A stretch of DNA of 64,000 bases from Escherichia coli (GTDB lineage Bacteria > Pseudomonadota > Gammaproteobacteria > Enterobacterales > Enterobacteriaceae). The position numbers and the translations under genes are program-made. The stretch is from NCBI RefSeq assembly GCF_003334385.1, contig NZ_QOWN01000014.1, one strand, 5' to 3'. Each line of letters begins with the position of its first letter. Position 1 is the first letter of the stretch. The notes below the pieces were generated by a model. It searched no databases and was not told where the DNA came from. It saw only the letters and a list, made by a program, of their open reading frames with translations. Shown here piece after piece: positions 1-320 of the stretch.

Positions 1-320
1 CTTGCGCGTCTTATCAGGCCTACAAATTCCCGCACCCTCCGTAGGCCGGATAAGGCGTTTACGCCGCATCCGGCAACAGTGCCAACTGCCTGATGCGACG
101 CTTGCGCGTCTTATCAGGCCTACAAATTCCCGCACCATCCGTAGGCCGGATAAGGCGTTTACGCCGCATCCGGCAACGGTGCCGACTGCCTGATGCGACG
201 CTTGCGCGTCTTATCAGGCCTACAAATTCCCGCACCCTCCGTAGGCCGGATAAGGCGTTTACGCCGCATCCGGCAATGGTGCCGACTGCCTGATGCGACG
301 CTCGCGCGTCTTATCAGGCC
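1..320. repeat. Tandem BIME/REP array: about 100-bp unit repeated 3 times plus a partial 4th copy, truncated by the window edge
   Basis: Unit beginning cttgcgcgtcttatcaggcctacaaattcccgcacc recurs at 1, 101, 201 and 301 with only a few point differences; palindromic GCCGGATGCGGCG / CGCCTTATCCGGCC motifs typical of E. coli REP. Confidence 0.85.

Follow-up and report, generated by a model that had tools for sequence, protein, structure and literature searches.

Two classes of composite REP element are distinguished in the summary given by Ton-Hoang et al. (2012). BIME-2 elements combine z2 and y REPs, carry a short S linker and occur in multiple tandem copies that are conserved within a locus and vary in number between strains, and BIME-1 elements contain z1, occur in single copy and have a long L linker with an IHF site. 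The element REP325 was placed by Qian et al. (2015) in the interval from yjdM (phnA) to yjdN (phnB) and described as six repeats, each composed of a Z2 and a Y palindrome (names also used by Harris, 2026), which are separated by constant spacers and yield naRNA1-6, with naRNA2 and naRNA4 being identical. REP325 is transcribed from the yjdM promoter, as the yjdM 3'UTR. A 2026 preprint by the Xiao and Adhya groups (unreviewed; hereafter the 2026 preprint) uses it as a model REP, ranks the array among the longest in K-12 and reports, from RNA-seq and Northern data, that it limits the expression of the downstream gene yjdN.

Analysis of the first 320 nt of the window, the whole 64,000-nt stretch of Escherichia coli DNA considered here, with Tandem Repeats Finder revealed a single tandem array with a period of 100, 3.2 copies, 97% matches, 0% indels and a score of 605, which confirms the near-perfect head-to-tail 100-bp repeat of the preliminary description. 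A second repeat search returned three in-register copies of 120 nt starting at positions 1, 101 and 201, with 97-98% identity. Compared pairwise, the full 100-nt copies are identical at 97/100, 97/100 and 98/100 positions, and the partial fourth copy (20 nt) at 19/20. Only five of the 100 columns vary, with the following base states per copy: T/T/T/C in column 3, C/A/C in column 37, C/C/T in column 77, A/G/G in column 78 and A/G/G in column 84. Both substitutions previously given as examples, ccctcc/ccatcc and aacagtgccaactg/aacggtgccgactg, are among these columns. Within each 100-bp unit, a Y REP is followed by a 17-nt C-rich linker, an inverted Z2 REP and a 13-nt linker, which bears out the core of the preliminary description, a tandem composite REP unit (BIME). 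Position 1 lies inside the loop of a Y palindrome, so that the window edge does truncate the array, as had been stated. The parts of the array and its immediate surroundings are as follows.

1-320, + strand: yjdN-proximal part of REP325, a BIME-2 array by its organization; 3.2 units of 100 bp, seven REPs, the first cut by the edge
1-23, + strand: Y-type REP, 3' half only (cttgcgcgtcttatcaggcctac), with the same sequence as the 3' end portion of the two Y copies 88-123 and 188-223; the 5' half is upstream, outside the window
24-40, + strand: tail-to-tail linker aaattcccgcaccctcc, 17 nt with 9 C and 1 G (sequence and composition)
41-74, - strand: Z2-type REP, copy 1, GTAG first on the + strand; exact 34-nt match
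75-87, + strand: short head-to-head linker aacagtgccaact, naRNA3-type, corresponding to repeat 3 in the K-12 reference
88-123, + strand: complete Y-type REP with CTAC end; exact 36-nt match
124-140, + strand: tail-to-tail linker, ccatcc variant (sequence)
141-174, - strand: Z2-type REP, copy 2; exact 34-nt match
175-187, + strand: short linker aacggtgccgact, naRNA2/naRNA4-type (sequence and comparison with K-12 units)
188-223, + strand: complete Y-type REP; exact 36-nt match
224-240, + strand: tail-to-tail linker, ccctcc variant (sequence)
241-274, - strand: Z2-type REP, copy 3; exact 34-nt match
275-287, + strand: short linker aatggtgccgact, naRNA5-type (sequence and comparison with K-12 units)
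288-320, + strand: terminal Y-type REP with loop ctCg and no CTAC tail, the end of the array; two mismatches, both at the tail
321-383, + strand: unique spacer of 63 nt from the array to the yjdN start codon (sequence)
384-827, + strand: yjdN (phnB), from the open reading frame and the K-12 annotation

The complete Y REP (36 nt) reads gcctgatgcgacgcttgcgcgtcttatcaggcctac at both 88-123 and 188-223. A GTAG foot starts at 41, 141 and 241 and CTAC occupies 20-23, 120-123 and 220-223, while the terminal Y, which is the same in every K-12-like array compared, ends without it. The linker at 24-40 corresponds to the 'U' spacer of Qian et al., whose Fig. 1 legend mentions constant spacers between the repeats. 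With search patterns taken from the array itself and from the general form of the REP consensus rather than from a printed one, the window contains six matches to the 34-nt Z2 and five to the 36-nt Y palindrome. Neither palindrome was matched in 100 dinucleotide-preserving shuffles of the window, so a chance origin of the array palindromes is excluded, their number being far beyond chance. Further REP palindromes of the window lie at 8120 (8120-8153), 29731, 29914 and 40406; phnD and phnE are separated by a REP pair, and several REPs cluster around 29.7-29.9 kb (29691-29949).

The array occupies the yjdM(phnA)-yjdN(phnB) intergenic region of a K-12-like E. coli genome. It is followed by yjdN (384-827), phnC, phnD and a frameshifted phnE, collinear with K-12, and the + strand of the window is the reverse complement of MG1655, with window position 321 corresponding to about MG1655 4,325,804. 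Megablast found the region in all of the 5,426 complete genomes of E. coli. The intergenic region from yjdM to yjdN measures 657 bp in MG1655 and W3110, and the complete array, at 4,325,805-4,326,384 in MG1655, is 580 bp long, with 5.8 units and 12 REPs, starting 14 nt past the yjdM stop codon. Window positions 1-320 hold the downstream portion of REP325, an element that already has a name and has been studied; the preliminary description had treated the array as an unnamed BIME and overlooked this identity, together with its role as the source of naRNA1-6 (Rfam RF02564) and its own experimental literature. Three matches to the Rfam naRNA4 family were obtained in the array.

44-120, + strand: naRNA4 (RF02564) match corresponding to naRNA3 of the K-12 reference; 106.8 bits
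144-220, + strand: naRNA4 (RF02564) match, naRNA4 itself; 111 bits
244-320, + strand: naRNA4 (RF02564) match with a naRNA5-type linker and the terminal (naRNA6-type) Y hairpin; 108.6 bits

The curated gathering score of the family is 59.5 bits, and on the - strand of the array the model stays under this threshold (53-55 bits). Repeats 2 and 4 of the K-12 reference share one head-to-head linker sequence, in line with the identity of naRNA2 and naRNA4 stated by Qian et al., which fixes the register of the window as naRNA3, naRNA4 and a third copy. The model also passes the threshold on four unrelated BIMEs of the window (2796-2876, 29691-29761, 29804-29874 and 40409-40480, all on the - strand with 69-79 bits); a match therefore means a REP pair and not a locus-specific RNA gene. 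Elsewhere in the window, and unrelated to the array, Rfam matches include the sraL sRNA (47718-47858, 146 bits) and a bacterial SECIS element (27168-27222, 87 bits).

By the arrangement of its palindromes and linkers, the array is a BIME-2. Its repeats are imperfect extragenic palindromes, the Y arms pairing over 8+5 bp with a 1-nt mismatch and the Z2 arms over 7+4 bp with a 2x2 internal loop. There are three exact Z2 copies, two exact Y copies, a terminal Y with two mismatches and a half copy at the edge, with Z2 on the - strand alternating with Y on the + strand. By length, the linkers correspond to the short type, 13 nt head-to-head and 17 nt tail-to-tail, and a long L linker is absent. The units are in tandem and vary in number between strains, with 3.2 in the window, 5.8 in MG1655/W3110 and arrays of 80-680 bp in 58 genomes. 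IHF binding, which had been suggested for such arrays, belongs to BIME-1 through its long L linker, and we rejected it for this array, which is BIME-2 rather than BIME-1 and has no match to the IHF consensus WATCAANNNNTTR within 1-320. Across the whole window, WATCAANNNNTTR has seven matches against 2.15 expected, the nearest to the array at 1671, and no shuffle gave seven.

Other assignments were also considered for the array. A CRISPR array, considered in view of the regular spacing of the palindromes, was rejected as the 'spacers' are near-identically repeated and two different palindromes alternate in opposite orientation. Two open reading frames, 2-193 and 93-293, with 63 and 66 codons, do not extend beyond the repeat, whose 100-nt unit is not a multiple of three; because the copy number shifts between strains and the PGAP calls are sporadic and appear as pseudogenes, they were rejected as protein coding, on the basis of repeat structure and annotation pattern. 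Over the array, PGAP calls a pseudogene or a 'hypothetical protein' in a number of genomes, for example ET220 and MG1655 CP169634, and nothing in most, and these calls are probably spurious. No intrinsic terminator, defined as a G+C-rich hairpin followed by a T run, occurs in 1-383 on either strand, and no sigma-70-like promoter was found in the same interval.

Folding of single palindromes, as RNA or single-stranded DNA, predicts stable imperfect hairpins, with -21.4 kcal/mol (z -6.5) for the Y copy at 88-123 and -20.9 kcal/mol (z -5.3) for the Z2 copy at 141-175, which is identical to the copy at 41-74. A 340-nt segment with the whole array of the window folds to -161.8 kcal/mol (z -8.4). 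The RNA-sense strand of the array contains 111 C and 84 G, a bias concentrated in the unpaired 17-nt linker (9 C against 1 G), which recurs each 100 nt. All five variable columns of the window fall within linkers or the Y loop. The same holds for the eight columns that vary among eight distinct full units from 16 genomes, all of them unpaired (linkers and Y loop), with paired columns making up 48 of the 100. This avoidance of stems suggests, from the pattern of variation, a constraint on the hairpins, although homogenization by conversion could also leave stem-avoiding variation.

The functional evidence on the element itself comes from a single study, the 2026 preprint. Deletion of REP325 altered growth and the expression of both neighbor genes, with a log2FC of -1.74 for yjdM and 3.36 for yjdN, and brought the yjdM/yjdN ratio from about 35 to about 1. 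According to its authors, the element stabilizes the yjdM mRNA, as the preliminary description had supposed for upstream transcripts in general, and attenuates read-through into yjdN, partly via Rho. Truncated transcripts formed a reproducible ladder with the array alone. With all 12 hairpins present, bicyclomycin increased the read-through from 23% to 39%, and it had no effect on fragments with two or four hairpins. The large stabilization effect was measured on plasmids, endogenous transcripts being present at about 1-2 copies per cell, and an in vitro screen did not recover Rho binding to REP325. These results fit the anatomy of the window, since its hairpins are predicted to be stable and lack U tracts, no internal promoter was found and the RNA-sense strand is richer in C than in G.

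We consider the following course of events the most likely; it is reported in the 2026 preprint and structurally plausible in the window. Each palindrome would form a stable G+C-rich hairpin in the RNA; the row of hairpins would block 3'-to-5' decay and thereby stabilize the yjdM mRNA, and would also act as a series of leaky stops that cut read-through into yjdN about ten-fold, partly through Rho. The unpaired C-rich linkers, recurring each 100 nt, may offer a loading surface for Rho, a proposal of our own that would account for the restriction of Rho dependence to the full array. As to origin, the array would have started as a single Z2-Y pair, expanded as whole units were duplicated and shrunk by unit loss, by way of unequal recombination, slippage, or cleavage and rejoining by TnpA(REP). 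We give a probability of roughly 80% to this explanation as a whole, that is, identity with REP325 as a BIME-2, stabilization and attenuation by hairpins, and origin by unit duplication.

A different role was proposed by Qian et al. (2015), in which the array is a gene cluster for naRNA1-6, RNAs that bridge cruciform DNA at REP sites together with HU and so condense the chromosome. The three + strand naRNA4 matches of the window, far over the threshold, would suit this role, as would the published RIP-Chip, TEM, 3C and AFM data on REP325 and the HU-naRNA4 Kd of about 32 nM. However, the RF02564 scores on unrelated BIMEs of the window show that the model reports a REP pair only, and the 2026 preprint, which has an author in common with the original work, finds no stable HU-cruciform-naRNA4 complex, an unchanged nucleoid volume upon deletion or overexpression and no REP-REP contacts in Hi-C, and the RNA is present at the 1-2 copies per cell quoted above. 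A genome-wide role is also hard to square with a single REP pair in 36 of 58 genomes and with 4-12 REPs among K-12 laboratory assemblies. We consider this role very unlikely.

A role at the DNA level is compatible with hairpin action in the RNA and is not a true alternative to it. Gyrase cleavage sites are over-represented in BIME-2 elements, mostly at Y REPs, with a signal that increases when transcription is blocked, and the array fits the BIME-2 definition, with four Y REPs in the window and six in the K-12 reference. By analogy, the array might be a strong, transcription-independent site for gyrase, or a topological insulator that separates the transcription units of yjdM and phn, a suggestion we hold only tentatively, as just 'a subset of BIME-2' is cleaved. 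In the weaker sense that applies to its class, the array is probably also a gyrase site. Gyrase binding, as anticipated in the preliminary description, is thus documented for the BIME-2 class, the documentation being for the class and not for the REP325 locus.

The number of units was compared among genomes with a query that fused two unique flanks of the array, 514 bp each, and records were taken at even ranking steps. The resulting tally covers 58 usable records, a stratified sample rather than a census, from which about 48 records with unjoined flanks were left out.

80-82 bp (one Z2-Y pair): 36 of 58 records
180-181 bp: 5 of 58 records
380 bp: 3 of 58 records
480 bp: 3 of 58 records
580-582 bp: 10 of 58 records
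680 bp: 1 of 58 records

Units were typed by their linker variant, with R1 for the first pair and a-e for later variants.

K-12 reference: R1-a-b-a-d-e
Window: ...b-a-d, then the terminal Y, with e absent
2018-02-2CC: R1-a-b'-d-e
gb37 / W3110-P: R1-a-d-e
MC1061: R1-a
Strain 164: first unit hybrid, followed by b-a-d-e
ZF34: R1-a-b-b-a-a-d
ET220: R1-a-b-b-a-d*-e
ATCC 8739 and the B2-type strain ECO_2_R: a single pair
O157:H7: two pairs
22AR0118: six pairs; the Y-loop variant differs, and the terminal Y is of B2 type

Relatives of K-12 have 4-7 pairs, against a single pair in most sampled genomes. Between near-identical strains, whole 100-bp units are duplicated or missing, adjacent duplicates occur, and internal units within one lineage carry common lineage-specific bases. 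The recent expansion or gene conversion put forward in the preliminary description agrees with this unit-wise gain and loss, with the single pair as the commonest state and with the lineage-specific bases. The pattern also accords with what Ton-Hoang et al. summarize for BIME-2 copies, conserved at one locus and variable in number among strains. The comparison of copy number among K-12 sublines and other strains, which it had recommended, gave 4, 8 or 12 REPs in K-12 laboratory assemblies and 80-680 bp across the 58 genomes. The idea that such arrays are hot spots for IS insertion found no support, with no IS inside the array in the 58 sampled genomes; their sole IS is an IS1A (IS1) of strain N921 (record L005, 609-1306), located upstream of yjdM, between crfC/rdcA and yjdM.

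This variability is also what would be expected of an array without selected function, in which a selfish or neutral REP doublet (REPIN) expands via TnpA(REP)/RAYT or unequal recombination and the effects on yjdM and yjdN are by-products. Such a neutral expansion accords with the range of one to seven pairs, one in most genomes, with the adjacent duplicates 'b b' and 'a a' in ZF34 and ET220, and with separate expansions that use different unit variants, as in 22AR0118, whose array, judged by its Y-loop and terminal Y variants, is an independent expansion. In vitro, TnpA(REP) is able to cut and recombine BIMEs, and the number of BIME-2 copies is known to differ by locus and strain. REP325 has been predicted by others to be a RAYT-associated REPIN. 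In our folding, one Z2-Y pair on the - strand forms a single long hairpin of -47.2 kcal/mol, the same pair on the + strand prefers two separate hairpins, and the RAYT gene is not in the window. Against neutrality, no circular intermediates were seen, the deletion of REP325 changes growth and the expression of both neighbors, and the variable columns avoid the stems, which suggests a constraint on the hairpins that conversion could mimic. We regard the absence of any selected function as possible, though doubtful. A point against the main explanation is that a single REP pair is all that most sampled E. coli carry, so that the long array is dispensable for the life of the species and perhaps largely neutral.

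Compared to the K-12 array, the window lacks the last reference unit (linker acagtgccgact), and its naRNA5-type linker abuts the terminal Y. The 100-bp deletion relative to MG1655 can be placed only within a run of 23 nt shared without change by the units (gtgccgactgcctgatgcgacgct), and a breakpoint inside this stretch makes homologous recombination or slippage indistinguishable from the action of TnpA(REP). The exact 120-nt junction (241-360) is present in six complete genomes, none of them K-12, and MC1061 and 15 others are one mismatch off; ZF34 carries the junction within an array of seven pairs. None of the RefSeq complete genomes is identical over window positions 1-12000, the best reaching 99.9%.

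Since a 580-bp run of 100-bp tandem repeats is prone to collapse in short-read assembly, the missing unit of the window, as well as the four- and eight-REP alleles of MC1061 and W3110-P, may be assembly or sequencing artifacts. The intergenic region measures 657 bp in MG1655 (three records), W3110, DH1, C600, ER1709, ME8067 and strain 1A, so that seven other K-12 assemblies all have the full-length form, and the junction of the window is in no RefSeq K-12 genome. A collapse is opposed by the presence of the exact junction in the six independent complete genomes, in ZF34 within its seven-pair array, and by five SNPs and a 6-bp indel relative to K-12 in 13 kb, which point to a distinct strain or lineage. 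In addition, seven W3110-P-derived assemblies have the same match coordinates and score against window positions 1-12000, of which gb37 alone was read and typed for the W3110-P allele. Collapse thus appears rather unlikely to account for these alleles, although some of the copy-number differences between assemblies could be assembly errors, and any single record may contain one. The two short K-12 alleles are a 457-bp intergenic region with eight REPs in gb37, which is W3110-P-derived (record L004, 3501-3957), and a 257-bp intergenic region with four REPs in MC1061 (record L007, 1387-1643).

Differences from K-12 in the first 13 kb of the window amount to five substitutions and a 6-bp deletion (1488, 3385, ~6168, ~6311, ~11520 and ~11819). 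Four of the five substitutions are G:C to A:T, and the deletion corresponds to the loss of one tandem GCGATG hexamer copy in phnI. At 3300-3323, phnE contains the tandem octamer gctggcgt gctggcgt gctggcgc, in which an extra 8 bp, absent in 2018-02-2CC, frameshifts the gene as in the cryptic phn operon of K-12, where RefSeq annotates phnE as a pseudogene.

Returning to the hairpin array as a stabilizer and attenuator, unit number could serve as a fast-evolving rheostat for yjdM mRNA survival and yjdN read-through, with Rho dependence setting in past a threshold of C-rich linkers, an extension that we put forward as speculative. If it were true, natural strains with 2 to 14 REPs would differ heritably in operon expression with promoter and coding sequences unchanged, and so would K-12 sublines (4, 8 or 12 REPs) and the allele of the window without one unit. 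The number of units differs even between near-identical genomes, K-12 laboratory strains included, and regulation is reportedly length-dependent, so that strain background may matter wherever REP325 is used as a model REP. The mildly useful addition of the present analysis is a unit-level map of copy-number alleles that includes K-12 laboratory assemblies and the allele of the window. For annotation, the region should be labeled as a BIME-2/REP325 array with three naRNA-family matches, and as neither coding sequence nor IHF site.

Taken together, the array is an ordinary and already known element; it has a name and an Rfam family, and experiments on it go back more than a decade. It has the same locus, flanking genes and unit sequences as REP325 of MG1655 (12 palindromes; naRNA1-6 / nc5): its units are MG1655 units 3, 4 and 5 (linkers acagtgccaact, acggtgccgact and atggtgccgact), and the terminal Y is also the same. 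Within the Gilson/Bachellier classification, it shows no essential difference from the BIME-2 family. BIME-1/RIP/RIB elements have in common with it a Y REP and an inverted Z-type REP, but they contain z1 in single copy with a long L linker and an IHF site, whereas the window has z2 in tandem with 13- and 17-nt linkers. The Rfam family RF02564, naRNA4 (CssrE), has three full-length + strand matches in the window, and its proposed nucleoid function is disputed. REP-based attenuators and stabilizers, such as the malE-malF REP and the BIME attenuators reportedly described by Espeli and colleagues in 2001, resemble REP325 in having 3'UTR hairpins without a U tract, protection of the upstream mRNA, reduced downstream transcription and a partial dependence on Rho. 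REP325 differs from them in that as many as 12 hairpins follow one another, with a ladder of products as the result.
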